DNA of 60,720 nucleotides, the filler included, from Asterionella formosa (Eukaryota), in the NCBI GenBank assembly GCA_002256025.1. It is 5 parts of 5 records of this genome, joined end to end, with 100 filler letters (N's around TTAATTAATTAA, not from the genome) between each part and the next. Parts side by side here need not be neighbours in the genome. Positions count along the whole stretch, not along the records: positions 1 to 12,074 come from NKIB01007881.1; positions 12,175 to 24,242 come from NKIB01007891.1; positions 24,343 to 36,406 come from NKIB01007899.1; positions 36,507 to 48,567 come from NKIB01007900.1; positions 48,668 to 60,720 come from NKIB01007913.1. One strand, written 5' to 3'. Position numbers and translations under genes: made by a program. The notes below the pieces were generated by a model. It was not told where the DNA came from and did no database searches. It saw nothing but the letters and a program-made list of their open reading frames with translations. This document shows positions 222 through 60,582 of the stretch, one piece after another. Position 1 is the first letter of the stretch; every line of letters starts with the position of its first letter.

Positions 222-372
222 AGGCTACCAGTACAATGGTACTGGTACCTGATATTCTAGCCTGGAACAGTAGAATGCAGCAGACTGCAAGAAGCATTAT
301 ACAAAGTACCGGTACCTGGTACCGGCACACACTGTTAACCCGACTACCAGGTACCTGGTACCAGGTACAATG
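222..372. repeat. Cluster of TA-delimited GGTACC-type palindromic words
   Basis: Contains TACCAGTA, TACTGGTACC, TACCGGTACCTGGTACCGG (307-) and the perfect 16-bp palindrome TACCAGGTACCTGGTA (345-360). Confidence 0.85.
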
Positions 373-583
373 TAATGGCAATCCGTGAGCACCATACGCA
401 CAGACTGTACGCTAGCAGCCCATGTGTTTGTTTGCCTTGCCTTGCCTTTTGTGGTATTCATGGCAGACTCTGATAATATTGTGTAGCTTTAGGATCTGTT
501 TGGATTAAAATGAAATGTGGTGACATGATCATCATGACTGTTCTTGAATGAAAATGCATCTTATTCCAGCCATTTTTCCAATC

Positions 584-842
584 TCCTTGAGTTTCTTGTT
601 GATTCTGTTGATTCTTTCATGTGTTTGTAGCTCATTGCACATGTGTTTGTAGCTCATTGCATACACTGTAGTTATTGTGTAGCTCAAAGCGCTGGTGCAG
701 ACCCCTGGTCCACATTGTTGCATTCCATTCATTTTCATCAAGCTCCTTGAGTTTCTTGTTGTTTCTGTTGATTCTTTCATATGTTTGTAGCTCATTGCGT
801 ACACAGTAGTTATTGTGTAGCTCAAAGCGCCAGTGCAGACCC
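584..842. repeat. Local direct duplication (~100-120 bp core, ~160 bp period) with an internal ~20-bp repeat
   Basis: ctccttgagtttcttgtt...gtagctcaaagcgc..gtgcagaccc occurs at ~584-703 and ~743-842; the first copy has atgtgtttgtagctcattgc twice. Confidence 0.85.
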
Positions 843-1989
843 AACAAACGTGGTGACTTGGGGCGCTGCAAGGCGGGAAAAAGGGTGGATACAGTCTCTC
901 GAATGAGACTAGGGGAAATTATGTGTGCTGTAAATGCTGTATTCTGGCACTGGTGAGTTAATCTGTCCCCACATCTTGATGACTGAGGAAAGGCAGATGG
1001 CATGGTTTGATCTTTTAATGAGGCATTAGTTTGCCTCCGGTTGATACTGGGTAGGTTAAGATTTTTATACAATTTAGGCTGTCAATGCCAGGAAGCGCCA
1101 CACAGGCTACCCTACTAATTCTTGAGCAGTCTTAAGGCGCTTAATAAATGAAGTTAAATATAAACCATACCCTGTTGGTGTGTCTGTAGTTGAGCCAGAT
1201 TGCTTAGCTGGCTGGTATAATCATCATAAGTAACAACTAGTGGTACCCAATATAACTCTATTATCCCATATCACTGTATGCATGCATGGTGGACTCATGC
1301 TGCTTAGGGACATTCTTATTATTTTTTATCGGATATCACTACATTTGAAATTTTTTGAAAAGTGTTTGAACTGAATTTTCTCCATTCTCAGCATAAAATT
1401 GTATCACTAATTTTTATCACAGTATATCATGGTGTAACAAGGGTCGTCAACCACAACAGGTCAGTGACAAACATTTCAAAATATATGAGTATATATAGCT
1501 TTTGAATAGAGCTATACAACCCGGTAGAGATTAACTAATTCCTTTAACAGAGAATACTGTTATACATGTATGCTACTGGGAGACTTGTAAACACCTTGTA
1601 GGCAATGCATTGATCATGGTGTTCATCTCGAATTTATCCATTAAAATTGAGGTCTAATATATCATAGTTTGAACAATACAAATAGAATAATTATCATAGA
1701 TAAACCTTTTGAATTGCGTAAGAAATTACAAATCTAAAATGGAAAAAATATTCGTCTATTTATAGGGATACAACAGAACTCTTGAGTTGTTTCAGCAACA
1801 ACTGGAGCCATAACTACCACTACCGCTGTATCTATAACTATCATATGACGAGAGGGCACCAAGCAAAAATAGTGTGAGGGTATCGATTGTGGCAGTGTTG
1901 TCATGTTGGAACGATGTGGTTGATTTTCAACGAACAACAAACTGAATTGCAGTTGACGTAATATTAATGTGATGCTGGCGTGTTTACTC

Positions 1990-2214
1990 TTATTTTATCA
2001 GTGACAACGGATGTGATTCACAGCAATTAACGGCTATATCACTGATACAGCATTGGTCAGGGGTCCAAAAACTATATCAGTGATACACCAGTGATCAGAC
2101 CTAAAATTCCGTCAGTGATACAAAAATTTGATACAGACTACCATTTTCGAAACAAAAACCCGGAAATGATACACCAATGACGACAAATGATAAATTTGAT
2201 ACAAACGGCCCTTA
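1990..2214. mobile_element. Right terminus of a PIF/Harbinger-like non-autonomous element with subterminal (CAG)TGATAC repeats
   Basis: Repeated tgatac/cagtgat motifs run into ...tttgatacaaacggccc followed by TTA (2212-2214). The reverse complement GGGCCGTTTG plus a TTA site fits PIF/Harbinger ends. No matching left TIR found. Confidence 0.4.
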
Positions 2215-2559
2215 GGGTACCCGAGGTAGCACTCGTTTTTAATGTAATCATTAAACTTAGCTAGATTATTCGATTCGTGTGTATATACAATATATACATC
2301 TACCAGGTATAGCACTTCTAAGTACTGTGTAGTCGTCGTGAGCAGCTGGAGAATGCATGGTGCATCATGTTGTCTCAGCCTTGACCATGACGAAAAAATA
2401 GAGCGATGATTTGCTATTGGTTATGTATATTAAGCACGATATAGAAAATACAACCTTTAAAAAATCTTGTAGTATGATGTTAAAGCTATTCAATAATCGC
2501 ACCCACTTGAATGGATGGACACAATGAGTACAGGTTTTATTCGTCCATATGGGACAACG

Positions 2560-3400
2560 GCACCTGTCTCCTTGTCAGTGAGCCACGTCCCTGGAATATC
2601 TAGCTTCAAGACAAGCTCACCCCCGGTTTTTCCACACATGTTCCATCATACCTTCTTCATTGATGAAGTAGAGGCATATCGATATCAGGTGGCGTGGGCT
2701 TGTAGATAGTTTTATTATTAAGTAGTTATCCCTTGCTTTTTCTAGGTAGGTTTGTATTTGTCAACATTTTTGGGGTCTCAATGCATCCTCGTTCCCACAA
2801 ATCCTGCAATACCAATCCCTTTGTTTTTCCATTCCAACCTCCCTTTTTGTTTTACTCTTGTCTTGTTGTTTGTTTATCTTAATTATTTCAGAGAATTAAT
2901 AGTTCCCTCTTGTTTTTTCCTTTGGCGTTGAACCCCCGGCATTCAAGTCATGATCCAATTCATATCGATTTCTGGAGGTTTTGGTCGGCGGCATAGTCCC
3001 AGCAAAAAATAACAGAATATCGCGGCTGCTTTCCCTTCCCTTAAGTGGTGACATCCAGAAGGGTCCGTAATCGTTGGGAAAAAAAGGCTCTGAATTTTCC
3101 ACATTTCAAGAATATATCCAGATGGCCAAAGATAGCTGATGGATTCAATAATGAATGCATCTCTCATCAGCGGCGCTTTCCATATATAGCCTTTTTTCAA
3201 GAAGGCGGCACAATCCATCCGGTCTTTGTTTGAATGGCCAGAAGAATTATCAGAAAAAATAAAATGGTAGTAGGTAGTAGGATGCATAAATTGCAGAATG
3301 TCAATTGGTTCTTCGAACTCTAGAACAACCAGCAGCCATGTGGTTGTAGGTCCACCAGTAGCCACCCTTCATTATTCTCGCCATGCTCAAAATACGCTAA
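2560..3400 (-). pseudogene. Degenerate IS630/Tc1-mariner-like DDE transposase
   Basis: Frameshifted motifs in order on the minus strand: YFEHGENNEG..YWWTYNHM, FIFSDNSSGH, GPFWM, GWNGKTKG..LQDLWERGCIE, FINEEGMMEH. These resemble Tc1/IS630-like transposases seen in diatoms (recognised by eye). Confidence 0.6.
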
Positions 3401-3649
3401 GAAGGGAATTGTAGTAAGTAAGTACTTCTATACCAGCATCATTATAAATATAACTTTATCCTATTCTTAGAGTGTTAACTACAAATAGTTAAATTTGGTC
3501 AATTTGTTTTACATCTGCAATAGTCCCATATTTTTTGACCGGAGCAAAAAGCTTCATTATTTTGTTGCTGACTTGATATTCATGTAATATTCCAACCGGC
3601 ACCAATTTCTGTTTATCGGTTCCTATTATTTTGATATGTCATATGATGT

Positions 3650-4775
3650 TTCATTTCTTCTCCCGCCTCCTCCGCTCCGCACTAGGAAAGACCCGATTTC
3701 GTTATCACGAATATAATTCTAACTCTCTATCTTGCCTGCCGTTGCTCAATTTGGGCTTGCAACAGAGACCTTTCGAATTTCTCTTGATCCCATCATCTGC
3801 TGCTTGTTATGCTATTTAGAGCGGATCGGTGAGCACAACAGTGAAACACTGAATGTGATCGTAGATACTAATCGTCGAATTTCCGATTTGATTGCTTCCA
3901 TTGTCAGTTTTGATCGCTTCTGTCGTTGTTAATATCATTCTGTACTGTCGTTTTGGTTCAATTAAATCGATCTATACAAGGGCCGATGTATGTATCAATG
4001 CCTACTCTTTGATGATATATTTTTGTATATCTTATTTTTTGATTTGTATAGTCATTGGCCATGATGTCAATATTGCCATCAAGCAATGCCTTTCTTTTCC
4101 TGACGCGCTTTGCTACCTTGCTACTTATGAGTTCGTATCACAAGCTATATATCAATATTCAGCTAGAGGGCGTCGATAGTGCTGGAGCTGTCTGGCAATC
4201 ACGCTTTGCTCAGAATGGAATGATCAGGGTTATTTGGTAGGAGGAACAACTGTGGGCGGAAGGATTGCTACTTTCGTCAGGCTACTACAGCTATGTACAT
4301 GGTTGCAGCAACCAGATCATCTACACTACATGACGATGCAGATCTCAATTGGGTTCAGCTTTTTCTTCTTTTCTGTATTACTTCGGTCTTCGATTGTGTA
4401 ATGCATGGAAATTCAATGTTGCCTGTCTAAGTACTACAATGCATACATCTTCACTGAAACTACTATTTTTGCTTCATTTCTAACCCAAAAAAAATTTCTA
4501 TTTCGTATTTAATTGTACTTATTACATTGCGTGTCATACTTTGGTTTCTTCGAAAATCATGTTTAATTTTCATTGATATTGCATGTTACAATCATTCTTG
4601 TGTGTTCAATGCTTGTTTTACCATTTCTATGCATATTACCAAAGTTATTCTGGCTGTCATGCTAAAATCTGCAATTTTCAAGCCGAAAATTTCGATGTGC
4701 CCCATATTGCCCCTCAATAAAAATTACTTAGAGCCTAAAAATTGCTTAGAAATACCTGAATGACAAGACAATAAA
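3650..4775 (+). repeat. Dispersed repeat family C, copy 1 (homologous to ~52600-53780 and, inverted, to ~50420-51150)
   Basis: Shared blocks such as gatcccatc.tctgctgcttgttatgcta, gctcagaatggaatgatcagggtt and ttagagcctaaaaatt.cttagaa.tacc.gaatg.caagac. Confidence 0.9.
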
Positions 4776-4814
4776 AATTTTGCTATATCTAGTTCCATGT
4801 ACAACTTCATACCG

Positions 4815-5450
4815 GTAATACTGATTCCAATTCCAATTCCAAATTAATACATGTGTCTCTTCTTAATATCCGTTTAATAAACCAACCCGACCGGCTTGTT
4901 GTTCCACTAAAAAATTAGCTTTAATCTGATTTAGAGACCAATCTGTTTTGCTTGGTCTGCCATTGGCTTCTTGTTCGTTTTGCTTATAGTAGTACCGTTT
5001 GCTTAAAGTAGGTTTGCTTAAAGTTCATTTCTTTAAAGTAGCAATTTTGCTTACTTTTGTGTTGGCATCATTTCGACGCTGCTGCCATCACAGTCACATA
5101 TGACCTATTTAATCATACTGTAGGTAATTATGATACTGAATAAGCACCGGAAAACATGTACTGGTAGTTAGTAAGTATGTAAGATGAAGAAGTGAACAAA
5201 GTATATTGCATACAGATACTTGATAATACATATGGCTGGATTCATGCACAAGGTACCTGGTACGATATGTACCTGCTCTGGAATATGATTATTTAGCTGA
5301 AATACTGCTATTCGTTTGTATATATAATACGCTATAGTGTAGTAGTAACGGTAGTTGTGTAGTTGCAAGCAGCTGGAGAATCCTTCATCATCATGTTGTT
5401 GCAGCATTGACCATGATGAAAATAGTGAATATTCTGATGAAACATGAGAA
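4815..5450 (+). repeat. Dispersed repeat family B (other copies at ~23730-24242 and partially ~2215-2400)
   Basis: Shared gattccaattccaaatt.at.catgtgt.tct, tttaataaacca.c.gacc, ctttaatctgatttag, ggattcatg.aca.ggtacctg and gctggaga blocks. Confidence 0.75.
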
Positions 5451-7349: not shown

Positions 7350-9797
7350 AGGAGAGCAGAGGCGTAAGCTGTTTTGATACTCCTGGCGATATGTCCACTA
7401 ACCCAGAACATGTATAGTTCATTACCGAAATCTAGGACTAACATTTAGCCTAGTGAAGGGAACTGTCTCTTCAGACCATTTACCAAAATGTTCCAAATTG
7501 ATTCTATCCAATGCAGATGAATTTAAAGGCATCATATTGCCAAGGTTGCTAACAAAATGGTAAATCAAAAGGCAAAGGCCGACAAGACAAAGAACTGGTA
7601 GGGTATTGGGGTTGGCAGTCATGACTATCTGGTATGTCTGAGTTATCTTGTCAGCAAATTTACCATTGTACCCTGGAACAAATATAGCAGTATTCTATGT
7701 AAATGGAAACAATGGTGCAGTGCTCACTACAATCATCCCCTTCTATGACTCAATTAGAATTCCGGGATTCGACAGTTGCAGTTTATTTTGATCACAGCAG
7801 CAGTACATAGCATATGATCCTGTTGCAATGTGTTGTTCGGTTCCATCTCATCATAGGAATACTACATGCACTATGCAAATCCTCGCAGATTTCAATTTCT
7901 TCACAATAAGTCTGCCACCACCAGCTGGCAATGTGCAATGGATGCATAGTAGGTGACATTTGACAGATATGTTGGATAAACTTGTTTGGTGCATTGGAAA
8001 GCCAGGACATGGACGGTGAAATCCACTTCATGTTTCTCCTCGACAACCTACCTAGCAAGGGCACTTATTCTGTCCTACAGAGGCCGTCGGATTGCAGTGT
8101 ATCCGGCAGGCTTACAGAGGGATTGAAAAAGAGTCAAAAATAAATCAATTGTAACTTTTTAAGCTACAATTCTCATGTTCGTGGCCGAATTATGTTAGGA
8201 AAATGAACACATGATTCAAATAATTGAAAAAAACTTGAAGGTAATCCACATTTCGTGAAGGACATAGAAAAATGAGATAGTCATGCGTCGTGGCCTTGCA
8301 TTCAAAAGATTCGCCGTTATACTCTAAGCGTGAAAACGCTGAGAGTCGGGAATCTTCTTCTTTGGTCGGGCAATCTTACGATTGCGCTTCTTGGCCTTCT
8401 TCGGTTCTCCATTGTCGTCGTTAGCACCTGCGCTCGCCGCACTAGACCCGCTTCGATCGCTGTCATAATCTGACGAGTCTGTGGAAGATTCCCCAAATGC
8501 CTTTTGTTTGTGAAAAATGCAGCATCGCTTGGAAGATTTCCGACCCATTCCTTCATTGTCGACCACGGCCTCGTCCCTGGCAAAAACAAATACATCAAAG
8601 CCGTGAAAAATCAATTGGTATCATACTTGCATTGCAACTATCACCGATCACTTACCATCTGACTAAAGGGCGTGCTCTAAGGGATAAGGTCAACATTTCC
8701 TGATCGACAGATAAAGGGGGCAACACCGCTGATTCTGTGATGGTCACCGTTGTTGATTGGCCATCAGCTACTGCTTCGCTTGTTGAGAATTGCTGCTCAA
8801 TCGATCCAGATTGATATTGTGATGCAGTTGAAGCAGTCTCTGGTTGCATAGCAGAGAGACTTGTTGGTAAATTGGCTGTATCACTCATCTTACAGTACCT
8901 TTATGATGCTTGGTTCCTGCAGTTTCTTGATCCTGACAATTATATTGTTGCTCCTTTCACATTTTCTGGGGTAGTTTGCCTGTAATGCCTGTCGACCGGT
9001 ATACCTTGTACCTGGTACCGAAACTGACAGTACATAAAATTATCTTCCACTCGTTCAAAATAGGGTTCGAGTTCGAAGGTGCAATTTTCAACATTTTCAA
9101 CCATTATGAATTCGATAATAGAACCTCACATCTTAGTCAATCTACCATAACAGTTTTTGGAAAAAGTTTTTAGATCATCTGCTTTGGCCACTCCGAAAAG
9201 AAAAGTCGTTCTAGTACTGTTTTATATGTTCTGGGATAAAACTCGTCAGCTTGGGGGCCCACTGACAGTTCAACTCAAAATGATGGCTGGGTGCATTTCT
9301 GGGGCCATCAGGTGGACTCTGTAAGCCTGTTATTAGCAAAAATCCTGACCCTATTGTATGTACTATTTTTTGCGTCTTAAAAGCTTGTTAAAATCGCATT
9401 GACCATGTTGGTATTATTCAGTTGGTTTACTCAACAAGAGAACAATCCCCTGCACTGCTTGATTTATCAATATCTCCACCATGAGCAGTGCTACTAGTAA
9501 CTAAATCAAGTGGTGTGGGAGCACACTATTTGGTTCATCTAAGAAATATTTATTGTTGAGCATGGCAGATCCTAAAGTAGCTTCCCGTCGACATAGTCCC
9601 AGGTACCATGTTGAAATCCCAGACCCATGACAGTTTTGCTCTTTCGTCTTTTCAGCAATGTCACGTTTTATAATGCGTGGACGGTTTCGTTCTTCTTCGT
9701 CCCCATCAATGTACTGACGGAATGATTCGTCCTCCTTCAGCATTATCAAATACTCTTCGGCTGAAAATTTATTCATATGAATGCTAATTATATACAA
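7350..9797 (-). pseudogene. Highly decayed Harbinger-type ('plant transposon protein', PF04827-like) transposase, interrupted by ~8070-9180
   Basis: N-terminal ...PRIIKRD...LNNKYFLDEP (9501-9797); QKCT and ADEF near 9240-9305; LIYHFVSNLGNMMPLNSSALDR...VPFT (7422-7622), weakly resembling WIWHAFFGMPGSNNDINVLDR...VPFT. Confidence 0.4.
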
Positions 9798-9804
9798 AAT
9801 TTGA

Positions 9805-12377: not shown

Positions 12378-13209
12378 GGTGCTACTTAAAGGTGATGATA
12401 AAAGATGTAGACGTACTACCTGGTACCGGTAGTAACTCGTCAGCCTGGCTAATTATCGCGCCAGTTAAATTCATAAAAGCAATATTATGATAACTACCGG
12501 GTAGTTATCATAAGAATCAACACATCACGAGCATTGATTGTCTCCAATAGTACTTAGAAGTGCTGTCACTAGTAGCAGATCACAATGATTTTGTTGTTTT
12601 AACAAACGACGTGTTAACTTAACTTTTGCCAAACCACCACCATGTGGGCCAATCGACACAATTCTGCATCGTTGTCTGATACAGACTCCATACCAGACAA
12701 TCCTGCATCGGATGGATACGACGATTATCAACTTGAGGAGTATAATGAATCGGAAGAGAGTGTCAAAGGAGATGGGAGGTTGACGGCAGAACAAGAAAGA
12801 GATAAACTATATATTTTTATATGTGTATATTAAAAGATTTGAATATGTCGAACGGATTCAATGCATAGCATATAAAATCGTTAATCGGAGTATAGAGTGT
12901 CCATGCATACATGTTGATCGTATTTTAGCATATATATACATTCAGCGACTAAGAGTGTCAATATATATATTTAGCGATTTTGACAAGGAATCTATGTACG
13001 TATTCGCAAATTTCCACTGATTCAAATATTTCAAATGGAATCACGTCATTCAAAAATAGCTAATTAAATTCTTAATTCCAGGGAATTTTCGCAACCCTAA
13101 GCAATATTTTAATTTTTGCCTAGGGTTTCAAATGCAGCAACCTTAATGAATGATGATTTAACAGCATAGAAAGCTTCTTAAGAGAGTTTGGAATGGAAAA
13201 CCAACCTTA

Positions 13210-14781: not shown

Positions 14782-15176
14782 TTAACCTTCCGGTTGTCAT
14801 GGGACGAATTATTGGGAGAAAGAAGTCGAAACTGAAAAATGCGCATTAAACGCGCACTACTGGGCCTTCCTGGTACCAGGAATAACCAGTCGGCTGAAAC
14901 AACCGGTACTTACTCAGTGTCTATGTATTACCGTATACTACAAAGCTTTTTATTACAGATTTGTGTACATGTATCCATCCTCATGGTTGCCAGCTTGCTT
15001 CAAGCAAGCTGGCGCGCCAAAGCATCAGCCAAAGCAACTCCTTTCTTTGATGCTTTTGCGCGTGAAGTACATATTCAAGGAGAAAAGTAACAAAGTAATA
15101 AAGGGATCTCAGTTGCGCTACACACTGTCGTTACACTTCCCTCTATTCACTTTTTCGTTAAAATCTTTTTACCACT

Positions 15177-23078: not shown

Positions 23079-23729
23079 TGATGTCTGAGTCTTGGAGATT
23101 GTAATAAGTGAAAGAATTCAACCAAATGGACAAGTAACAGTCAAGCTTCCTTTCAGTAAAGTATAACTAAAAATTATTATTACAAAAGGGTCATGAGCAA
23201 GTACTAATGTCACAAGTGGTGATACTACCACCAGATCATTGCTACCGGTACTAAGCAAGATGATGTGGTAGGTATTCTACTGACGCTTCTATTACTGTGC
23301 TTGCGTAAGCATGTATTTTTGTATGCGTAAACATGTAAAATGATACTCCCAGTATTACTTGTAAAAATCAACCCAGGTTGTATTTTTCTGTAGGCCTCAA
23401 GTATCGTTCTACTGCGGATGGTAAAATACCTTGACGGTATTTTTCCGTACTTGATCACGAGAAAATACAGTATTGTACAACAAAGAAAAAATCAACCCGG
23501 TTGCATTGACGGTTGATTTTGTACTCCCTTTTTGGTTGAAAAATCAACTCTGATTAGTCGTAGAAAAGCCGGGATGTGCGTGATGATGCATAAAAATATG
23601 CACATGAAGCAAGATGGTGGTACCGGTACCAGGTACCTGGTACCAGGGTACTCAGCTTACCGGCAAGTTGCGGTAATTTTGCTAAACGAGCAGTATCCAA
23701 ACTTTAGTGCTACATACGTCATCGTGCTG

Positions 23730-33479: not shown

Positions 33480-33653
33480 TGAGCAATCCTGCACATCGAT
33501 ACAGATGTTTATGGGGTTAGGGATATATCAAATATATCAGAGGTCGACTAACACTAATGGTAAACTCTGATGTCAACTCGGGAAACAAGTTGTACATTAG
33601 ATTAATTAGCTAATTTATTCAACAAATACTACTACTTCTAGTTAGATACTTCA
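33480..33653 (+). repeat. Putative 3' LTR of the Gypsy element
   Basis: Purine tract GGGAGAA immediately followed by TG (33480); candidate ...TTCA end at 33653. No 5' LTR available to confirm. Confidence 0.45.
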
Positions 33654-33827
33654 CCAGGTACCAGGTACCTGGTAACAGGTCTTGGGCAAGACGAAAAAGA
33701 ATTACAACCAGCTGTGCAGCACGATCATAACACGCCACGAAAAAGAAGGAGTCCTTTCAAAAATCAACCTTGGCGATGAATATCTTGAGGGGAACCTTGT
33801 CATGAATAAAGGTGAACTACAATATTA

Positions 33828-37310: not shown

Positions 37311-39226
37311 TTGGATGACCACCATAGGGCAGGGTTGCAGTGACAGAAATGGTGCTGCTGCTGCTTTCAGTTGATGCAGTAGTAGTGCTGCCTGGCAGGA
37401 GGCAAACTAGAACTTGTAGACATAATCATAGTAGTAATGGAAGAATGATGATGATTTTTTCTGCTATAGCTGTAATTTTCTACACCTTCCATTGTCAGCA
37501 TAGATGTTTCGCTTTCTTGTTAATGCTCTTGCTCATCCTCCTCAGGCTGTTTGTCCGTTCTGGTAGCTACTGGTGCCACCAGATAACCTTATTTTCCTTA
37601 GAAAGTATTTCACTTTCTGTGTAGTCTCCCATGGGACAAGTTCTTGTATTTCGCTTTCAACACTTCCATATTTGTAGAAATGTTCAATAGGAAATGTTCA
37701 ATAGGCAATGTTCAATCATCCTCGCTTTGTTTGCGCTGCTAATAGACTGAGCCGCCTTGCCCGAAGGCACAGTCGATTTCTTTTTTGCCATAAATTGGAT
37801 GCATATTATGAGATGAAAATTGTATACTGGTATGTACTCATTTCCTTTCAAGTGTATGGGTGATAGGGCGCCAGTTTATGATGCTCAAGTTACTTAGGCA
37901 CTATCAAGTGACAGGGATAAGGATATGACAGGAATCATACGCCAAATAAATCGAAGGCGATATTTTTGTATTAAGCTGCGTATATCATATAATAGTGAGT
38001 CCTCAAAACATGGGGTAATCCGTGTTCTGGCAATATTTTCGTCGATCGCTCTTTTCAACCAATATTTTAGGAGAAACCAATTGCTATAAACTACGAAGTA
38101 ACTTCGACACAATTACCGTCTCGTCCGTTTCGTCTTTCTCCATATGTAGTCTGTGTAGTCCTAACTTTGTGGGTATTTAGCTGCAATATATAAATCGACC
38201 CATCAAATACTAGAATAGCGAGCCAGAAATACTAAGTAGAAGTAGCATAAATGGTTTTTGAATTCGGTGCTAAGTATACGTGTCCCTTTCCCAGAATCCG
38301 GGTTCAAAATGCGGATCCAATCTCCGGGTTCAGCGGCAGTCGAGTTGCGCTTTTGCCGTGGGAGGGACATAGGGTGGGTGATTTTAGACTATAAATTGCG
38401 AAAGGCTTGGCAATGCTTTAGACTGCTTCTCTGAATCGTTATTCAAAGAATTGTGTGCTTCACCCTTGCACTAATTCACTAATTTAACCTCGCGTGGTTG
38501 CTCTTGTCTTCCCTTGTCTTAGCTGCCGACTCTTGGTTGTTCGATTCTTGTCCCTATATTGAATTCTCAGCTTCGACTCCTTCGATTCGCGTCGCGTGGT
38601 TTGTATCATCCGGTGCTCGCCTGATATACTAACTCCATCGCGTCCGTCCTTGTCCGTAATATCAAATATCTAATGACATAGCCTTAAAGCGTACATGCTC
38701 AAGATTAGGGTCGAAGTTTTAAAATTAACAAATCTGCATTTGGGAGGGTCAAACCGTGTTTTTCTCCTGTTCAGTGGGTCACAGCAGTTCCAATTTTTTT
38801 TTAGTGGGTCACAGCAGTTTTTTACTGGAACCGTCCTGATGCGCCATCACGCTGTGATGCATGTTGACATCAATTCGACATCATGCAGAGGATACTTTCA
38901 GTGACAGGTTGGAGTCGTACCAGGTAACACTGATACTTCGCTCCGATCATCATTAATTTCTCGCCAGTAGTACCAGAGTACCGTACATATTATATACATG
39001 GCTATTTCGCAGAGCGCAAGTCGAAAAGGAAGCCAGAGCCTGATGTGTGTACCAGTACTCCTACCATGTTGCCTGGTACCTGGTACCGCCATTTCGTAGA
39101 CGAGTTCCTGGTACATCAAGTGGTAGCCATCAAGTACTGCCTTAGGCCGGCCTTATCATGATACTTTGAGTGTCGGATAATCAAATACCACCCCCAAACA
39201 TAGCTAGTGGAACGAGGGAGCAAGAA

Positions 39227-40168
39227 ATGTCGACGAGACAAATGTTGCTGGCTCTGCTTGTTCTTGTTATCTGCTCGTTGTCGTTTTCTACTTCATCTGC
39301 CATGTTACTGCCGACAGCGTTGGTGCATACCTTCATTGGGGCCATTGCCGGATCCGCGGGAGCCTTTGCGGTATACCCAATTGACTACGTCAAGTCGCAA
39401 CTTCAAACAGAAGCAGGACGAGCCAAGTGGAAAAGTGGAGGCATAGAAGCCGCCTTGGATATATGCAAAACGACTGGACCGCTGTCGTTATATCGCGGAG
39501 TACTTGTCAATCTTGTGGGAGTGTCACTGGAAAAGACAATCAAACTGAGCGCTAATAACATGTTCCGTGTTGCCATTCGGAATCAGTTCGGGTCCTTGCC
39601 TTTGGCAGGAGAAGTGCTGGCGGGGGGTTTAGCCGGCATGACACAAGTGATTGTCACCAATCCACTGGAGGTGGTCAAGGTAAAGATGCAAACCAGTGAC
39701 AAGTCTCTCACAGAAGTGATGGATCAGATGAAGGGATTAGGCGATTTATATCAAGGAGCTGGAGCTTGTGTAGCCCGTGATAGTATCTTTTCAGCCGTCC
39801 TGTTTCCAGTCTATGCTCACGCCAAGGTTGCAGTGACATTGGCGTTGGTGGGACAACCTGCCTTTTTGGCCGATGTGATTGCTGGGAGCTTGGCAGCAGC
39901 GCCTGCTGCCATCCTTGCAACACCTGCAGATGTCATCAAAACAAGAATACAAGCACAGTCGAATAGATTGAGTGCCGTCGAACCTGGTTCTTTCCTTGAA
40001 GTGGCATCAAAAGTCATCACTGAGGAAGGTCCTGCTGTGCTCTTTAGTGGGGGACTAGAGCGTGTGGTTCGATCTGCACCACAGTTTGGTGTCACTTTGT
40101 CACTCTTTGATGTGCTAAATACAGTGGCTATTGATCATGGATGGTTGTTACCAGAAGGTCTTGCATAA
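39227..40168 (+). CDS. Mitochondrial carrier family (SLC25) protein, aspartate/glutamate-carrier-like
   Basis: Three PX[DE]XX[KR] motifs (PIDYVK, PLEVVK, PADVIK); GAIAGSAGAFAVYP and RSAPQFGVTL resemble the citrin/aralar/AGC1 carrier domain; no EF-hands; hydrophobic N-terminus. Confidence 0.92.
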   Translation: MSTRQMLLALLVLVICSLSFSTSSAMLLPTALVHTFIGAIAGSAGAFAVYPIDYVKSQLQTEAGRAKWKSGGIEAALDICKTTGPLSLYRGVLVNLVGVSLEKTIKLSANNMFRVAIRNQFGSLPLAGEVLAGGLAGMTQVIVTNPLEVVKVKMQTSDKSLTEVMDQMKGLGDLYQGAGACVARDSIFSAVLFPVYAHAKVAVTLALVGQPAFLADVIAGSLAAAPAAILATPADVIKTRIQAQSNRLSAVEPGSFLEVASKVITEEGPAVLFSGGLERVVRSAPQFGVTLSLFDVLNTVAIDHGWLLPEGLA

Positions 40169-40937: not shown

Positions 40938-42328
40938 TCATGACAAAGTTGAAAAACTATTGCCTTAATGTGTGGTAGCCCTTTCCTATTTAAGTTTCTA
41001 CTCATCAGGAAAATTTTGAAGCTTGAACCGGGCTGGGAAGGGGCCGAGAGCACAGTGACAACATGAGAAACACAAACATCATGTGAGCACCACAGTGATT
41101 TAAAATTTTACCAGCAATAAAGAAGGCGCAAAATATAATATATTTATGGTTATGGTTGATTACTATACCAGGCCTACACAAGGCTAGCCAGTGTTGTAGG
41201 AATTTGCATCCAGCTGTACTATGGCTGGGTGCATCCTGAAACTTCATTAGGTTGCCACTGTAGCTAGCTAGTACCAGTACAACATAATTTTAGCTGAAGT
41301 AAAGTTATGTACAGACATAAAAAAATATGTACAGACATACACAGAATCCATCAGTAAATTTTATGTATACATTTAAATAGTTTTACCATCTGATCTCCTT
41401 GTTGTCATTGTTGAGTTCATTCATGAAAGTCTTGAAAGTGAAGTCCATTTCACGATGATGGTTGGTGTGATATCATTGGAGAAGCATCATTGTAACTGCT
41501 ATTGGACCATATTTGAGGCAGTCCTGTACATTTGGAGTTTCAGCTCCAGATAGCCCACTATCAAGCTCATGAGCTTTTGCACGTGAAACGGTTGGTCATG
41601 TATGTTAAACATGGAACTGCCATGCTCAGCACTAAATAGTTCATAGGTTCTCCATCCACCGGTACCTGATGGGAGTACCAGGTACCAGGGTACCAGGTAG
41701 TTTGAAGCACAACCTGTTGCATACCAGTATGCTTGTGGTAGGCCAAATGCTGTTCGATGCCACGAGGTACCCTGGTACCAGGTATTATCTTCCTTGATAA
41801 TACGTCCTTCCCCACAGTAGAAGAAAAAAGGTAACTTAAAAATATTATGTTCTTATTCGAGGCTGTATATAAATCATAACTCAAACGACCATCTGCTCCT
41901 CTGGAGCCACAATCTGATTGTCCAACGTTCCAGTAAAATTAACGATTAATTTAATAAAAACGTTATATATAGATCGTTGCCGGTAGCTAATATGTATGAT
42001 ACAGGTGATGCGGGATTCCATACCGGTATCCGGTATCCATCATTTACCAGGTACCTGGTACCGGTATTCGTCATACTTGTTCATTTAGGAGCTAGAATGA
42101 TCATGCACCGGTATGTTGCTCGTTTACCGGTACATGGTACCGGTAGTACCAGGGTCCATTGTTCTAGGGGTTCCTCAATATTCATACGTGTATATAAATA
42201 TATTTACATGCTTCCAGATTTTTATCAATTTCTGTCGTCCTCGTTCGAGCTGATTTTGCTTCTGATTTCCTTGAATCCCCGTTTGTAATAGTTCCTTGAG
42301 CTCTCTCCTCCTCTGCGAAGTATCCACG

Positions 42329-43426
42329 ATGTTTGGTCCTACACTGTACACTGCTCTTTCTAGGCTGCCCCACTGGACCCCAGTTGCGGCAACTGGAGGC
42401 TTGCTGGGACTGTTTGTCATCCTGGCAGTCGCATTGCCAGTGGACCACGAATCTTACTACGTGGCCTTTGCGGGGAACAACTTCTTGGCCATTAACGACA
42501 TACCTCGACTGCTTCAAGCCATGGGCGGAGGAGACAAGTCAACCGTCATTCGGCAGCAGTCTTGTCTTCACCCTAGTGGGACTGTGTCGTCGATTGTATC
42601 GACGGGCAACGGCATGAAGAGTCAATGGCACACGAGCAATGCCATAGACAGCGAGACGTACATGACGGACTATGGAGTCTGCTCGATCCGGCAACTGATT
42701 CTCGGATACGACGACACATTTTATTACGACAACCGCAACGGTGCATATGAGAACGATGGAGAGAACCCTTGCTTGGAAAACCAAGAATACACGGACTATG
42801 TAAAGAGCACGATGCTGGATAACAAGACGCTGCCGCAATTTTTCGTCATTGCTGATCAGACCAAACGCATGGCATTTCAAGAATATCGAGACGATGCCTT
42901 GTACAGTTTGATGAATGACTACATTCCTCTCTTAAAGGTATCTGGAGCCATTCCCATTGTCGTTGCCAACCATGGATTCTGGTCCACCTCGAGCAACATG
43001 ACGGGCTTGGACGATTTGGCTAGCTTTACATCATTGATCTACGAAGGAGCTAGGCAATACGCTGCACAATTCGACAAGGGACTAACGCAACGGTCTCGTA
43101 TTGCTCCCGTTGGCCTTGCGTTTTTGACCGTCTATGAAAAGGACTTGGATATGTGGAATATGCTCACGGCGTCAGATGACATTCATTCGTCGGTTTATGG
43201 GAGTTTCCTCACTGCATGTGTCTTGTATGCAACCATTACAGAAACTATGCCAGACAAGTCCATGTTGAACGATGTGAAGTCTCTCTATAGTAGTGTTCGA
43301 TTGACCAAGGGGGAGAAATATGGCTTCCCCAATGGTGAAGAAGCTCTTTTCTTGTGGAAAGTGGCAAGGAAAGTGACACTTGAAGGGCAAAAGCCAAAAA
43401 GTTTTGAATCTTACGATCGATTTTAG
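42329..43426 (+). CDS. Membrane-anchored or secreted SGNH/GDSL-hydrolase-like protein
   Basis: 365-aa ORF from the ATG at 42329; N-terminal hydrophobic segment; block-I-like FAGNNF..INDIPRLL; IAPVGLAF; block-V-like DDIHSSVYGSFLTACVLY. Confidence 0.75.
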   Translation: MFGPTLYTALSRLPHWTPVAATGGLLGLFVILAVALPVDHESYYVAFAGNNFLAINDIPRLLQAMGGGDKSTVIRQQSCLHPSGTVSSIVSTGNGMKSQWHTSNAIDSETYMTDYGVCSIRQLILGYDDTFYYDNRNGAYENDGENPCLENQEYTDYVKSTMLDNKTLPQFFVIADQTKRMAFQEYRDDALYSLMNDYIPLLKVSGAIPIVVANHGFWSTSSNMTGLDDLASFTSLIYEGARQYAAQFDKGLTQRSRIAPVGLAFLTVYEKDLDMWNMLTASDDIHSSVYGSFLTACVLYATITETMPDKSMLNDVKSLYSSVRLTKGEKYGFPNGEEALFLWKVARKVTLEGQKPKSFESYDRF

Positions 43427-43880: not shown

Positions 43881-45131
43881 TTAAAGTTTCATCATTCCGT
43901 TCACAAAATCACCCAAAGCATTTAACATGCCAAACCCTTCTCGTGCTGCACTCTTATCTCCATTTTCAATATCATATATATCTTCCACTTCAGGATTAGA
44001 GGGCAACCTATCTGATGTTGAAATGAGTTTGTAGCCTCCTTCGGCAGTTTCATCTTCTTGCCACACTGAAAACGCCCGAGGCCAGGTGCGTGTCAGAGCA
44101 CCCCATGGGAGTGTACGAAGGTAATATGTTTGCGTCAAGGGTTCAATCAATCGTTCTCGTAACAATCGTCCAGCCATACCAAATCCTGTTACACCCATGT
44201 CAACCAGAATGGGGTTGACGAAAACAGTCAATTGCAGGGTATCTACCAATTCTGTTTCAACCTTTAACAAAATTCTTTCCACATTTTCCGCTTCCGATGC
44301 TCTGGGACAAAAGAAAAAGACAATCACATCCTTGGAAATGTCAGCAACTTGTCTTCCTCCACATGCACTAAACTCGACACATGCTGGTACCAACGAATCT
44401 TGGCCTTTCCAATCTCGTCGTGCCAATGCAGCACTGCCTTCATCTGGAAAGTACACACGAGCCTTGGGACCATCCCAGCTGGGATTTTCTGGATCTACAC
44501 CTCCAGATTGAATTATTTGGATCAATGCGTCTCGCTTGTCCTTTATTGTTGAGTCATCATTGTCATTATCTTCGTCACCCAACTCTCGCAGCTCCGCCTT
44601 GGCTTGTGCCATTCTCATAATTTCTTGTTGCCTTTTTTCCTGTACACCAGGAATCATTAAATAACAAATGGCTGTTACCATTTTTTGCATAAATGGTGTC
44701 GATGACTTTAAGAGTGTGTATGTGTCATCTCCTGCGCTAGTATCAAAGTCTACTCGACAGCGAGCAACATTCCCAGAGATTTCGGCGAAACTGGCACATG
44801 CTGCAGCAGCAATCTCAGCTCCATCTTCTAGGCTGTCTGGAAGTTCCGTGGGACGGCCTGTGAGTGTGTGTAAGATGAGAGAGGATTTAAAAAAATCAGA
44901 ATTGTGAGTGTGCTCTGTGGTCTTGGACCATTCTATAATGTTGCACACTTCATAGTCAGCACATGTTTTCGTACCCACAACGGCATCGACGGAAGAAGAA
45001 AATAGATGACTTGATGCTGATGGGCGTGTACTGGTAGTAGTGGCAATGGAAGCAGGTCTAGTAAAGTGAGGCACCAACGCAGTTGCAGTGCCTAGTAGCA
45101 CCAGAACGACAAGAAAGGAAGGAAACATCAT
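43881..45131 (-). CDS. Plastid-targeted DUF1995-domain protein
   Basis: 416 aa; signal peptide ending TATA-L followed by a Ser/Thr-rich transit peptide; [16 protein letters not shown] and [16 protein letters not shown] motifs. Confidence 0.85.
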
Positions 45132-45364
45132 GGTTGTGCTAATTCACTATGTAATGTGAACGCTAATAATTGTGATGGATGAGACTGACGGTAAAAGCGA
45201 TGGGTCGCGATCTTTCCGATGCAGCCAGCCGTAGAACGACCAGCATCACCCATAAAATGTCGACCCCAAACACGCGTAGCTAGCAGGTTACCTGGACGAC
45301 AAACCTTGGGGTTCCCTTTTACATACAGGCCGATACATCATTTGTGAAATTAGCGTCGTACTGA

Positions 45365-45665
45365 CAACCGGTATGTAGGTACCAGGTAGTACCATGACGT
45401 AGACACGTAGACCATGTAGAATACGGTACTTTGTACCAGGTACCTTGTATACTTCATTGAGTGCCTCTATGTACATGCTGGTACATAGATCTCGCTACCT
45501 GTATGTATATGACCAGTAGTCTGCGGTACTGCTGGTACGCACCATAAGATACCACTGGTACCAGGATTTTTAGGTACCTGGTGGTACCTGGTACCGGTTG
45601 AGCATTTAATCTACCTACCGGTACCGGTATGATAGTACTGGTACTGGTACTGTACCAACTTACCG
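45365..45665. promoter_or_regulatory. Divergent promoter region dense in TA-delimited palindromic words
   Basis: Lies between the divergent starts at 45131 and 45736; includes taccggtaccggta, tactggtactggtactgta and ggtacctggtggtacctggtaccgg. Regulatory role is inferred only from position. Confidence 0.5.
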
Positions 45666-45735: not shown

Positions 45736-46527
45736 ATGAAAATTGGTTTTTCTCTCTCCCCAGGGGGTTTGATGCTTCCGTATCATGTCGGAGCTCTCGC
45801 TGCTTTAGAATACAACGGATTCTTGGACGAGTCTTCCCCACTCGCTGGATCTTCGGCTGGGTCCATTGCTGTGGTGTCTCATGCTTGTGGAATCCGCCCA
45901 GAAGCCATTCTCGAAGCTACCATTCGAGTATCCGACATTTGTTCCGAGTCAGGAGGTGCCAGAGGACGCCTTCTGCCCCTTTTGAAGCAACAAATGAATG
46001 ATCTGATTGACGACGATGCCTTTCAAAGATTCTGTCAACGTCCAGGACCCACAGGTGTAGCCTTTCGTCAAATATTTCCTACAGGAGTTAATTATTTGCA
46101 AACCTCCTTTCAAAACAAGGGAGATTTGATACAAGCGACTGGCTTTTCTTGTATGTTTCCTTTCTTTGCCACCAACTGGCCCTGTGCTCTTGATACTAGT
46201 ACTACTAGTACGCCATTACAACGACTGCCTCGACTATTGGTGGATGGATACTTTACTGTCCCACAAAATCGGTTTGGTTGTCCAGAATTTGACATGGCAC
46301 AAATACAGGTAGATCGGACTGTGGCAGTTGCAGTCTTTCCAAGTCAAGTAGTAGATATGGGTGCATTTGATGACAATGATATTATTAGTCCCAATAATTG
46401 CAACATTCCCCTTGGAGACTTTTTTCGAATTGCTACACAATCCACATCACGCAAAGATTTGACTGCTGTCTATGAACAGGGATGGATGGATGCTGAGAAT
46501 TGGTGTATACAAGAAGGAAAACGATGA
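45736..46527 (+). CDS. Patatin-like phospholipase
   Basis: SPGGLMLPYHVG oxyanion loop, GSSAG nucleophile elbow, VDGY catalytic Asp. Confidence 0.9.
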   Translation: MKIGFSLSPGGLMLPYHVGALAALEYNGFLDESSPLAGSSAGSIAVVSHACGIRPEAILEATIRVSDICSESGGARGRLLPLLKQQMNDLIDDDAFQRFCQRPGPTGVAFRQIFPTGVNYLQTSFQNKGDLIQATGFSCMFPFFATNWPCALDTSTTSTPLQRLPRLLVDGYFTVPQNRFGCPEFDMAQIQVDRTVAVAVFPSQVVDMGAFDDNDIISPNNCNIPLGDFFRIATQSTSRKDLTAVYEQGWMDAENWCIQEGKR

Positions 46528-56710: not shown

Positions 56711-57719
56711 AAAATTTCATTCAAATATATATGTATATTACAGCAGAGCAAGTTGATGAACAAGAATGCAAGAACAATGAAGAGCCACCAGATGACAAAA
56801 TGGAAGACGGAGAGAGCAACATGGAAGAAGAAGTAGTGGTAGGAGAGATGACCAAAGTTGGACTTACACAAGAGAAAGAGGTACACAAGACTGGAGTAGA
56901 TGACAAGAGCAAGCATTCAAAGAATTCTCCCCAACAGCAAGAGCATCAAAACAAGCAACCATCAATGATGAGGCGAAAGTTACAGAAGTAAAAAAAGGCA
57001 TTTCCACCACTTCCAACAAAGAAATGTCAAATCAAGCAACCTAACTCCAACATCCGCATTCCACAGAGAAGGACAAACACCTATGGTGGGACGGAAAACA
57101 AAAGTATGCAGAATTGTTCCCCAGAATGACAACGTTGAGGAGCAAACAAAGATATTCGATCTGAATTTAGCAAAAATGATGGAAGCAATGAAAGCCTCAA
57201 AACATTCCAGGCAGTATTTAGAGGCAGAGCTGTCAAATACAGCGGAACTGGACAAAACCTCTGATGAAGAAGCAAATAGTGGCAGCAACCCAAAGATTTA
57301 CACATCAAGAGCGGCGCCCCAAGAAGATATAGAGGCGATAGCGACCATGGAAATAATTGATCAAGCTATTACTGTAATTGGTAGGTCAAACCAAATTTTT
57401 AAAAATTCTCTATTATTTAACAATATCAGATAAATACTAATCCATTGATATTTTCAAAATGACTCTTTTGTTTACAAGTTCTGATCCAGTTGGTGACTAC
57501 ATATGACTAGAAACTTGATGGCAACGACTAGAACTTGCTAACTATGACTAGAAATCGTAGAATATGAATGGGATTTGCTGACTACAACTAGAAGTTACAG
57601 AGCAATTTGTGAACTCTATAACAAAACTGTCTTCCAGCTTTTGAATACTATTTCCAGTAGAAGTAGGTGAACATGATTTCAACAATCAGAACATAACTTG
57701 GATTTAATGAATAATAATT

Positions 57720-57860
57720 AAGCAGCATAGAAAGTTTCTAATGAGAGTTTGGAATGGAAAGCCAGCCGAAGCCTTCCGATATGCATGGGACAAATCATTG
57801 GGCTTTGAGTCGAAACTGAAAAGTGCGCATAAAACGTGCACTCCCGGGGCCTTCCTGGTA
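57720..57860 (+). repeat. Repeat end homologous to the joined flanks 13160-13209 + 14785-14874 (empty-site paralog)
   Basis: cagcatagaaag.ttct.a.gagagtttggaatggaaa.cca.cc...ccttccg...catgggac.aat.attggg...agtcgaaactgaaaa.tgcgcat.aaacg.gcact...gggccttcctggta. Confidence 0.85.
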
Positions 57861-58071
57861 ACAGGTACCAGTACCAGGTACCTGGTATTGGTACCCCGCC
57901 AATCCTGCAGCCAAGCAACAATCAAAGAAATCACCACATGCTGCATAGCGCTTTATCTCTGAAGTTTTCATTGTCACCACTTTCATCCCCGTCTCCATTT
58001 TAATATCACCTTGAGTCCATTCGCTTCTCACTCTGTGCATTAATCTTGCATCCAGGAGGATTATTTGATTC

Positions 58072-58395
58072 ATGACGATGCAACGCCTTGGCAGAGCAAT
58101 GCAATCAAGTACTACCAAGCGCTTCATTTCCGCCACCAAGGTCTGTCCGGTCATGAAGCCCGGAACTGTCATCACTGGATTGCAGTTGAAAGAGGGACAA
58201 GAGCCCATTGTCGTCTTGAAGCGAGAAGAATATCCCGAATGGATAAACACTTTGGCAACACCAAAGGCTTCCATTGCCAGGCTTCGACAAATGGAGTATA
58301 ACGATGACACGCCTGACGTGGATCTCAAGCGGTACCTACGATTGACGAGACGAGCACTAATTAAGGAGAACAATTTAGAATCCACCGCAGATTAG
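58072..58395 (+). CDS. MRPL54: Mitochondrial ribosomal protein mL54 (L37 family)
   Basis: Basic presequence; GTVITGLQLKEGQEPIV..REEYPEWINTL; RYLRLTRRALIKENN. Confidence 0.85.
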   Translation: MTMQRLGRAMQSSTTKRFISATKVCPVMKPGTVITGLQLKEGQEPIVVLKREEYPEWINTLATPKASIARLRQMEYNDDTPDVDLKRYLRLTRRALIKENNLESTAD

Positions 58396-60582
58396 CAGGT
58401 GGAATATCTATCGGCAATGATGAGGCAACCAGGAGTATTTGGCAATCTTGGTTTACGTCCTTTGAAATTTGGTTTATTCTCCAATGCCCTTCGCTTGTGG
58501 ACTAACCATGTCTTGCCAGTGCTCAGGCCAGAAACTAAAACAAGTTTAATGTAATTCAGAAAAACAACAGAGATCTAGATAACCCGTGAAATTGTTAAGG
58601 AAAATTCACCAGTATTAGCAATCGATCTCAACGCTAGATTTCGTTGCCATTTATAAAACAAGACTCAAAATCAGGGAAATTGTGCGTGTACATCAACAGT
58701 AGATGAGAACATACCAATGAACTCAAGTAGGGTCCAACCCATCTACCGGTACAGGGAGATGTTGTTGAAGAAAGATTGAAATGGTGGTGTGCATCTCAAT
58801 AAAATATGTCCCATTTCAGGATGACCGTCAAATGATTAAAAATTTGTCGAAATTTTTTTTCGATTTTGTCAACTATCAATTTATCGCGGGTCGCCGAATC
58901 TTTTGCAACAGAAACGTTTTTGGTGGTTGCAAACGTGTTTATAGAAAGTAGAGCATTATTCGATCTGATCGGCCAACATGACGTACCTGGTACCCTTTCG
59001 GTGAAGATTCTCGCTCCGCCGAAACATTGACATTACCGTGAGTGACTTGGTTCCTTTCTTGACAACTATCCTGACTGACCAAGACAAAGATTAAGAGTCT
59101 ATGTGAAGAGAAAGGTCCGTCATTTTCTTGCCCATTATGATGATAATTGAGTTATGGCCAAATCAGATGAAACACATGTGTAACATATTCCTGCATTTCA
59201 CCGTACCAATACATCTGTATTGGCGGCTCATATTGTACTTATTAAAAGGTAGTACAATCATTACTTCCGATTGCTCGTATTTCCTTTGTACTCTGCAATT
59301 GTAAGCTCTGTAAGGTAATGGATTGTGAGATCGCTGTCAAATCGGATTTGTTGACAAAGTTTGCCGATGAACATGATCTTAACATATTATTATGCACTGA
59401 TTTGAGAAATATATTTTTCCACAAACGACACATGTACAGTACATAGTTAATTGTAGACCTAATAATACCGGTACATAGATACCGATCGGGTACCTGGTAC
59501 CAATGCCAAATATGTGCAATAACAAACTAAAATATTTGGCCAGCACAGGTCATTTTGTCGACCATGGCTGGCTGCAGTGTCTTTTTTGCTCATGAGGTTG
59601 CTGCTCGCGGAGGCACTTCTTGTACATACCCTGGGAGTAGACTTACCTGGATGTCGATTTCCATGTTCGTGTCACGACTGGTGCAGTACGTTGACGAGCG
59701 GGTACGACTTCTAAACATTTTTACAAACGTAGCGGTGCATAAATTGGAAAGTCGGGGAAGCCGACCATTTTAATGCATGGTATCACACATAATGTTAATA
59801 TGATCATTGACGGATGTTTGCTTGTGAAATAACAAAGATAACTTACCAAACCTTTGTTAATCCGTACAAAGCTCAATAATACAATCACAACGACAATTTG
59901 ACGATTCCGGTATTCGTATACCCGTATGTAGGTTTACTTACGGCAAGATGAGAGTACCTGTTACCGGTAGACTACCGGTAGTACAAAATACATTCTATTC
60001 AGGACTCAACATGCATACAAAGTCAACCAATAGCTAAATATGAATACCCGGTGTGTTTGTGTAATATTACTTTATACCAGTTGCAAGCTATTGCCAGGTT
60101 TTCAGGATGATTTGGGTCACAGACGCGACAAATATAAATTGAGCCATACGTCGTTCTAATTCGGCGGTCATATTTCCTTTATGTGTGATGGCTTGTGTTC
60201 AAGATATATCGAGGATAGAAAGATATTCATGTGGAATGGTGTGACATCACGGCTATGGACACTACGATCCACATGTATTGATACACAAAGTTTCAAATTT
60301 GATTTTGTCGTCCATGTCTATTATTAGGATACTCCTAGTCTTGTTTCGAAAAAGATAAGTGACATTCCAAAATCAATCTTCATTCTGTTCAGAAACGTTT
60401 TTGCTCAATAGAACTCATAATTTCTTTTTGTAATCTGATCTATTGACCGCCTAATCAATTCTCCCGTCAATTCATTTCCGAAAGATTTCTCGGTCTCCCA
60501 CTTATACATTCATAAATATTGCTCGCATTCTGATTTAAGCATCTCCTGACGACAAAAGCGAATCGACACGACAAAAAGAAAA

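Follow-up and report, generated by a model that had tools for sequence, protein, structure and literature searches.

HIP1 is a fixed octamer, bacterial, and common inside genes. In the available part of its description (PMC5861425), this word of the cyanobacteria (GCGATCGC) is a short perfect palindrome, hyper-abundant genome-wide, on whose function there is no agreement. Here we describe a word of related form in a 60,720-nucleotide stretch of DNA from the diatom Asterionella formosa (assembly GCA_002256025.1; the whole stretch is referred to as the window). The unit is a 9-bp palindrome, TACC(A/T)GGTA, with an 8-bp form TACCGGTA, and adjacent units share their TA so that arrays have a period of 7 bp (or 6 bp). 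The arrays occupy intergenic DNA on the promoter side of genes, and other diatoms have them too; this is the strongest fact of the analysis, it is new here, and it was missed by the original prediction, which had been made from the sequence of the window alone. That prediction had called the word HIP1-like, which is right for a hyper-abundant palindrome and wrong for the intragenic spread, because the diatom word is near-absent from open reading frames (ORFs; 0.05/kb vs 2.8-4.9/kb in 5'-side gaps) and lies on the 5' side of genes. It further differs from HIP1 in its degenerate dyad and its tandem chains.

Transposon excision offers a second comparison. Footprints of Tc1/mariner elements correspond to the 2-4 outermost bases at one or the other end of the element, and the canonical footprint of Sleeping Beauty is TACAGTA or TACTGTA (both from the part of PMC6943129 that was available). 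Like the latter, as described in that part, the diatom unit consists of TA, a short palindromic remnant and TA, with a central A or T. Unlike the rare single scars of Tc1/mariner, the diatom word has 5 bases, is chained, and reaches 3-5/kb on the promoter side, and no source element for it was found in 465 kb.

Promoter tandem repeats and microsatellites of yeast and other eukaryotes are short, unstable and enriched in nucleosome-free promoter DNA. The diatom arrays depart from these in the random A/T of neighbouring units and in the fact that one word dominates the genome and recurs across lineages. Sites of dimeric factors with a CCWGG-type core include the STAT GAS site TTCCWGGAA and the yeast Leu3 site CCGGTACCGG. 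The diatom unit is like them in having two 4-bp half-sites around an A/T dyad, a likeness of sequence form only; CCGGTACCGG itself occurs once in the window, at 45618. In Drosophila the Zelda 'TAGteam' heptamers (CAGGTAG) and the GAGA-factor repeats form promoter/enhancer clusters at which a pioneer factor opens chromatin, according to the available parts of two reports (10.1101/368035, PMC5496641). The diatom heptamer CAGGTAC is one base from CAGGTAG, which we use as an analogy only, no relative of Zelda or of the GAGA factor (GAF) being implied or looked for, and the diatom unit is palindromic and tandem, unlike the Zelda and GAGA sites.

Literature searches with the strings TACCGGTA, CCAGGTACC and GGTACC together with diatom motif returned only primers and cloning sites. 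No description of the word was found in the literature on diatom motifs, bidirectional promoters and mariner-like elements, and these searches found no general promoter-marking sequence described for diatoms. The main text of a paper on Phytophthora transcription-factor specificity, in the part available, contains no GTAC, CCAGG or CCTGG, and its supplements might list such 8-mers.

The word, its arrays and its variation

The window is made of five mutually unlinked pieces of ~12 kb (1-12074, 12175-24242, 24343-36406, 36507-48567 and 48668-60720; joints N/TTAATTAATTAA) with a G+C content of ~40%, and the sequencing runs that match it come from freshwater or algal metagenomes. GGTACC is the hexamer of the window most over-represented relative to an order-2 Markov model (48 sites; both strands, 96 vs 24.3), followed by ACCGGT (62 vs 13.9 expected). 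TAGCTA is over-represented in the window too (28 sites, 2.3x).

The original prediction had parsed the clusters as chains of short words delimited by TA, and that grammar is correct, the counts of TA-delimited words lying far above those of shuffled sequence. TA-CCWGG-TA and TA-CCGG-TA units are 40-170x commoner than in dinucleotide shuffles. Between consecutive TAs the counts against the 30-shuffle expectation were 17 vs 0.1 for CCGG, 14 vs 0.2 for CCAGG, 13 vs 0.3 for CCTGG, 10 vs 0.6 for CTGG and 8 vs 0.8 for CCAG. TA stands on both flanks of 27 of the 107 CCWGG cores and 17 of the 96 CCGG cores, against 0/427 for six control palindromic cores. All of the clusters that had been listed were found again. 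The 16-bp palindrome TACCAGGTACCTGGTA is exact at 345, 23627, 33659, 42045 and 57872, with one further copy carrying a single mismatch at 45434, and occurred 0 times in 100 dinucleotide-preserving shuffles; the chain quoted at 23621-23650 is likewise present and reads TACCGGTACCAGGTACCTGGTACCAGGGTA.

Five of the clusters are recognised by Tandem Repeats Finder as tandem arrays with a period of 7 and 3.4-4.6 copies. For comparison with other organisms, metagenome contigs were scanned for the 16-mer TACCAGGTACCTGGTA (the seed), which gave at least 123 stretches; 122 loci totalling 405 kb were used. The spacing from GGTACC to GGTACC peaks sharply at 7 (9 instances in the window, 129 in the loci), and these sites showed no helical or other periodicity beyond 7 bp in window or loci. 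Chains of a single unit dominate (25/33 in the window, 415/610 in the loci), and about 80% of units are perfect. When single-stranded, the arrays are predicted to fold into hairpins of -5 to -12 kcal/mol (z -1.5 to -3.6).

At the dyad of TACC-N-GGTA, the units of the window have A 14 times, T 13 times and G once, and those of the loci have A 312 times, T 295 times, C twice and G 4 times. The unit neighbouring a seed makes a palindromic pair with it 21 times and a direct pair 27 times (loci, p=0.47), and adjacent pairs in the window are unlike in 9 cases vs like in 3, so that each unit's A/T behaves as an independent coin flip. Because palindromic neighbours are not preferred, quasi-palindrome correction is disfavoured as the main source of the A/T alternation. 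We counted 607 perfect 9-mers vs ~250 single-substitution variants, ~110 of the latter being expected as background (our sums), which by our estimate gives the eight non-dyad positions ~3% divergence per site. With those eight positions so little diverged, a 50:50 mixture of A and T with 1% G or C does not come from point-mutation decay; either units are born in both orientations, or selection fixes everything except the choice of A or T. The commonest variants are transitions (TACTAGGTA, 30 vs 5.2 expected, and, for the 8-bp form, TACCAGTA/TACTGGTA, 180 vs 48 perfect in the loci), which suggests cytosine deamination or the loss of one G from the 9-bp form.

In the locus L080 a run of ~13 pure CAGGTAC units gives way to 3 CTGGTAC units. 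Classical slippage, in which units are copied, clearly acts in long chains such as this one and fails to explain the short ones. Across spans that hold arrays, contigs of other runs show net differences of 5-22 bases from the window; among the indels listed (12 of 30) none lies inside an array, by contig comparison only.

Position relative to genes in the window and in other diatoms

Seven genes were assessable, having both the start codon and upstream DNA inside the window. Of 44 perfect units (TACC[A/T]GGTA or TACCGGTA), 20 lie within 350 bp upstream of the seven ATGs, a zone that makes up 2,450 of 60,368 bases or 4% of the window (binomial p ~1e-16). Units are carried by 6/7 of these genes, 114-309 bp upstream. 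In the gene-dense fourth piece, clusters occupy all three 5'-side gaps (before 39227, before 42329, and the divergent gap 45131/45736), with at most one unit in the three gaps that separate 3' ends. The clusters were as follows.

214..384, array cluster with units at 307, 313, 345, 352 and 359; 157-209 bp upstream of the minus-strand ATG at 148
5243..5285, small cluster, GGTACCTGGTA ... TACCTG; no recognised gene near
8986..9029, small cluster, ACCGGTA ... TACCTGGTACC
12401..12448, TACCTGGTACCGGTA chain; adjoins a 66-bp tandem repeat
14866..14882, CCTGGTACCAGG, no TA flanks
23603-23669, cluster with a four-unit chain at 23616..23653; ~570 bp upstream of the pogo-like transposase frame (start near 23047)
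33639..33691, three-unit chain; next to the ORF of a copia-like reverse transcriptase
39050..39113, cluster; lies 150 bp ahead of the ATG of the mitochondrial carrier gene
41649..41801, two chains; within the long gap ahead of the 42329 gene
42006..42168, cluster with six perfect units; 191-308 bp upstream of ATG 42329
45355..45401, cluster between the divergent DUF1995 and patatin genes; lies 249 bp ahead of the DUF1995 ATG
45547..45658, cluster; lies 114-151 bp ahead of the patatin ATG
57840..57910, chain; on the 5' side of the mL37-type ORF, 193-200 bp away
58984..58992, lone TACCTGGTA unit
59465..59503, TACCGGTA ... GGTACCTGGTACC
59940..59994, TACCTG, TACCGGTA, TACCGGTA

The genes and coding remnants to which these positions refer, together with the other recognised ORFs, are given below.

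2..148, minus strand, probable aldehyde dehydrogenase, first 49 codons, running off the contig, ATG at 148 (positions 9-45 of the Aldedh profile, with E=1.2e-4 and a score of 21.2 bits that falls short of the curated cut-off of 23)
16924, methyltransferase-like ORF
21486-22776, minus strand, pogo-like DDE_1/Tc5 transposase ORFs (Pfam), the frame broken between two ORFs
39227..40168, plus strand, mitochondrial carrier gene (Pfam; best named relatives are diatoms, 50-59% identity)
42329..43426, plus strand, expressed ORF with no Pfam family
43881..45131, minus strand, DUF1995 gene (Pfam)
45736..46527, plus strand, patatin-like phospholipase gene (Pfam)
46833-47798 and 47853-48419, minus strand, CLP1 gene (Pfam), read as two ORFs, which suggests a short intron of ~55 bp
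49303-50058, bZIP+PAS (aureochrome-type) protein (Pfam; closest Atlas clusters are diatom)
58069-58395 (also taken as 58072-58395), plus strand, mitochondrial ribosomal protein L37-family (mL37-type) ORF

PolyA RNA contigs (run X8) cover the ORFs and, among the pieces listed, a minority of the total, none lies over the arrays at 41649-42168 or 45355-45658. The contig of the carrier gene starts at 39107, ~20 bases past the array, contigs being unable to show true starts; assembly may simply have broken there, at the repeated word.

The same arrays occur in several diatoms. Only 2/122 loci show blastn similarity to the window, and the loci therefore represent other organisms. They encode eukaryotic proteins, and the named relatives of the phosphoglucomutase of L079 are all diatoms (47-56% identity). 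A green-lineage origin of L079, raised by Atlas clusters for phosphoglucomutase, was set aside for these named matches. Beyond 40 bases from the seed, two or more additional units were found in 72/122 loci. None of the 8 loci with a G+C content of 0.52 or more had further units, and viral contigs gave 1 isolated match, also with no further units.

With seeds excluded, the loci contain 0.05 units/kb in ORFs (8 in 150,153 bp), 0.53 in convergent gaps (6 in 11,265), 2.75 in tandem gaps (101 in 36,759) and 4.87 in divergent gaps (141 in 28,943). The difference in density between divergent and convergent gaps is significant (Mann-Whitney p=2.6e-6), and at least one unit is present in 18/21 divergent vs 3/22 convergent gaps, seeds again excluded. 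In gaps that hold no seed, GGTACC occurs at 1.18/kb in tandem vs 0.10/kb in convergent gaps. With each gap taken once and duplicates removed, 17 of the gaps that contain a seed are divergent, 13 are tandem and 3 are convergent, and a seed stands inside an ORF 7 times; the gene end that faces a seed is a 5' end 73 times and a 3' end 27 times. Within tandem gaps only 4/140 units fall in the fifth closest to the 3' end of the upstream gene.

In loci of 42-47% G+C, CCWGGT, TACCAG and GGTACC lead the list of over-represented words, and the promoter-side DNA is rich in TAG/TAC/CTAG/GTAC words. A separate observation concerns TAGTAG, TACTAG, ACTAGT and TAGCTA, which in the promoter-side DNA of other diatoms are 2-3.5x over the order-2 model and 12-42x denser than in ORFs. 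These words form short palindromes centred on CTAG or GTAC.

Mobile elements and other features of the window

In three other runs, DNA contigs accumulate where the array words lie (29, 22 and 8 contigs at 42045). At 42045, 42062 and 41699 the loose ends of many contigs agree at only 0.37-0.45, which bears out the original view that the arrays are neither one microsatellite nor one miniature inverted-repeat transposable element (MITE); since the flanks of the contigs are unrelated, the word is dispersed genome-wide and does not represent a single repeat family. In the window, none of the direct repeat families of 40 nt or longer includes an array, and the only homologous pairs among the loci are 100% identical duplicates. 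Judged by their flanks and by these repeat comparisons, the arrays do not show the shared internal sequence, terminal inverted repeats and fixed length that define a MITE.

The ends of a Stowaway element had been proposed to lie in this context. They are only an 11-bp inverted repeat, GACAGAGGGAG at ~18250 and CTCCCTCTGTC at ~18977, and by our arithmetic ~14 such inverted pairs within 1 kb are expected by chance across the window. The proposed pogo end, GGTA-CAG at 21261, is present as a sequence; longer inverted arms outside it (21166-21254 / 23665-23710) enclose the pogo-like ORFs, so that 21261 is not established as the end of the element. The chain at 23616-23653 lies just inside the right arm of this pogo-like element and upstream of its transposase frame. 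The two arms share an 18-base core, of which a third copy with 3 mismatches occurs at 51802-51819, and a string similar to this core appears in the loose end of an RNA contig at 39070. Fragments of copia and gypsy type are also present in the window (Pfam).

Blocks of ~200-290 bp that adjoin the pogo-like and the copia-like arrays are 72-73% identical to blocks in the loci L017 and L027. These homologous blocks also adjoin arrays, which differ from those of the window in the number of units and in their A/T states. From this comparison, one case each and therefore an anecdote, arrays appear to change by whole units between species. The stretch 23355-23562 and its counterpart in L017 (2051-2254) are ~200 bp of non-coding DNA, 73% identical, rich in TCAACC...GGTTGA inverted repeats and with arrays flanking both. 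Rfam gave no match for this block, which may be a small mobile unit or a set of subterminal transposase-binding repeats. Next to the word TACCWGG, a single recurrent sequence was found, a 28-bp unit starting TACCTGGTGGGTTTGACCACC, which occurs twice each in L004 (7876-7930) and L023 (4969-5025).

Between the carrier gene and the 42329 gene lies a multi-copy transcribed repeat. The depth of DNA contigs from three runs over 40537-42148 is 3-9x that of neighbouring genes, and RNA contigs with loose ends map to 41536-41765. Elsewhere in the window, tandem repeats were found at 12175-12377 (66 bp x3, 98%), 20685-21084 (200 bp x2, 97%) and 30510-30810 (118 bp x2.6, 80%). Degenerate interstitial telomere-type repeats (TAGGGT/TTAGGG, 7-9 copies) occupy 36026-36141, a G-rich stretch towards the end of the third piece in which GC skew is strong. 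Neither Rfam at gathering thresholds nor a tRNA scan gave a match in the window.

Origin and role of the arrays

The arrays are real; they are not random, they are associated with promoters, and diatoms share them. Their fixed period of 7, free of any helical periodicity, together with the predicted hairpins, the abundant CpG-transition products, the long pure run in L080 and the unequal number of units in the homologous blocks of two species, are what would be expected of a neutral promoter microsatellite, that is, of a degenerate heptamer (GGTACCW)n or hexamer (GGTACC)n with no sequence-specific function, born and resized by slippage with hairpin formation or template switching, tolerated in nucleosome-free 5' DNA and purged elsewhere. 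Slippage copies units, yet the A/T of neighbours is uncorrelated in loci and window alike. Most units are single yet perfect, the even split between A and T is irreconcilable with decay by point mutation at the divergence estimated above, and the word is hyper-abundant in several diatoms. We consider such a microsatellite an unlikely account, though one to be taken seriously.

The random dyad, independent between units and almost never G or C, is reminiscent of the TAC(A/T)GTA of Sleeping Beauty, and the original prediction had accordingly offered stacked excision footprints as one explanation. A TA-targeting cut-and-paste element with CCAGG...CCTGG termini would insert preferentially into open promoter DNA, excision would leave TA, terminal bases and TA, and re-insertion at the new TAs would lengthen the chain. 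Word grammar and dyad fit this well: every unit is TA-flanked (TACCWGG is followed by TA in 1652/1900 cases), CCGG, CCAG, CTGG, CCAGGG and CCCTGG can in our parsing be read as left and right remnants of CCAGG...CCTGG, and a pogo-like transposase gene is present in the window. The position of the arrays does not discriminate, because cut-and-paste elements often favour open promoter DNA. What fails is the source element, the 3+3 product and the transposon ends that had been cited, neither the Stowaway nor the pogo context having been established. A search of 465 kb, a small sample, found no TA-targeting element with TA-CCWGG termini and a unique inverted repeat, and those inspected among 67 candidate pairs were array against array. 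Clustering of extensions found no recurrent sequence extending from TACCWGG. There is no enrichment of the 3+3 product TACCATGGTA (absent from the window, 5 times in the loci), the Tc1/mariner remnants documented in the part of the source available have 2-4 terminal bases where 5 are seen here, and very many fixed cycles of insertion and excision would be needed, at nearly every promoter-side gap and in several lineages. We regard stacked footprints as quite improbable. A related proposal, that a TA-targeting transposase, active or domesticated and with CCAGG-type ends, cuts and rejoins promoter DNA so that each cycle adds one randomly oriented TA-CCWGG, leaving a written record whose scars were perhaps co-opted, seems to us very doubtful. 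Arrays might also travel as part of a MITE or long terminal repeat element and not independently, as their place inside the pogo-like inverted arms and beside a copia-like ORF, and the homologous blocks of L017 and L027 that likewise adjoin arrays, would allow. The unrelated flanks seen genome-wide, and the lack in the window of a long direct repeat family that includes an array and among the loci of homologous pairs other than identical duplicates, make this hardly credible. The remaining probability falls to such element-borne spread or to causes that we have not thought of.

The explanation that we favour, tentatively and with confidence somewhat short of even, is that the arrays are a lineage-specific cis-element of diatom promoter regions, putatively the site of a dimeric factor, with a copy number that drifts by slippage. 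The unit would be recognised by an abundant DNA-binding protein, probably a dimer, with a requirement for A or T at the dyad, and the element might serve generally to mark promoters, open chromatin or boundaries, in the manner of the GAGA and Zelda heptamer clusters of the fly. Replication slippage would alter the number of units. As in homotypic clusters of binding sites, the word is enriched upstream of genes over other non-coding DNA, and the same word is found in related species. We also count in favour of a promoter-region element the arrays that mobile elements carry in a promoter position, one ahead of the pogo-like transposase frame and another next to the copia-like ORF. That elements carry the promoter word of their host fits the block comparison, with one case each and so as an anecdote.

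Several observations weigh against a promoter-region element. The methyltransferase-like ORF at 16924, one of the seven assessable genes, has no upstream unit, and the RNA support comes from contigs, which cannot show transcription starts. The loci were chosen by the motif itself, and their genes are non-overlapping ORFs of at least 150 amino acids with no intron models. In these loci the median distance of an array from the first ATG of the adjacent ORF of that size is 754 bp, far above that in the window; unless first exons were overlooked, a core promoter element would not lie at such a distance. The contrast based on seeds only is weak per base because divergent gaps are 2.6x longer than convergent ones (21 of each sampled; mean length 1378 vs 532 bp); by our arithmetic ~5.6 of 20 seeds would be expected in convergent gaps from length, vs 3 observed. 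The run of up to ~13 pure units in L080 is like that of an ordinary microsatellite. Finally, the CpG-transition product TACCAGTA/TACTGGTA outnumbers TACCGGTA (180 vs 48 in the loci, 18 vs 17 in the window), and from this excess it follows that the 8-bp form decays freely or derives from the 9-bp form by the loss of one base.

Diatom promoters are poorly defined. A 9-bp palindrome that precedes most recognisable genes and that several diatoms share would, if true, provide a handle for its binding factor, for the annotation of promoters in the numerous diatom and metagenome assemblies without annotation and for the design of synthetic promoters. If the arrays are instead a scar of repair or transposition, they would constitute an unusually dense natural record of a sequence-writing process.

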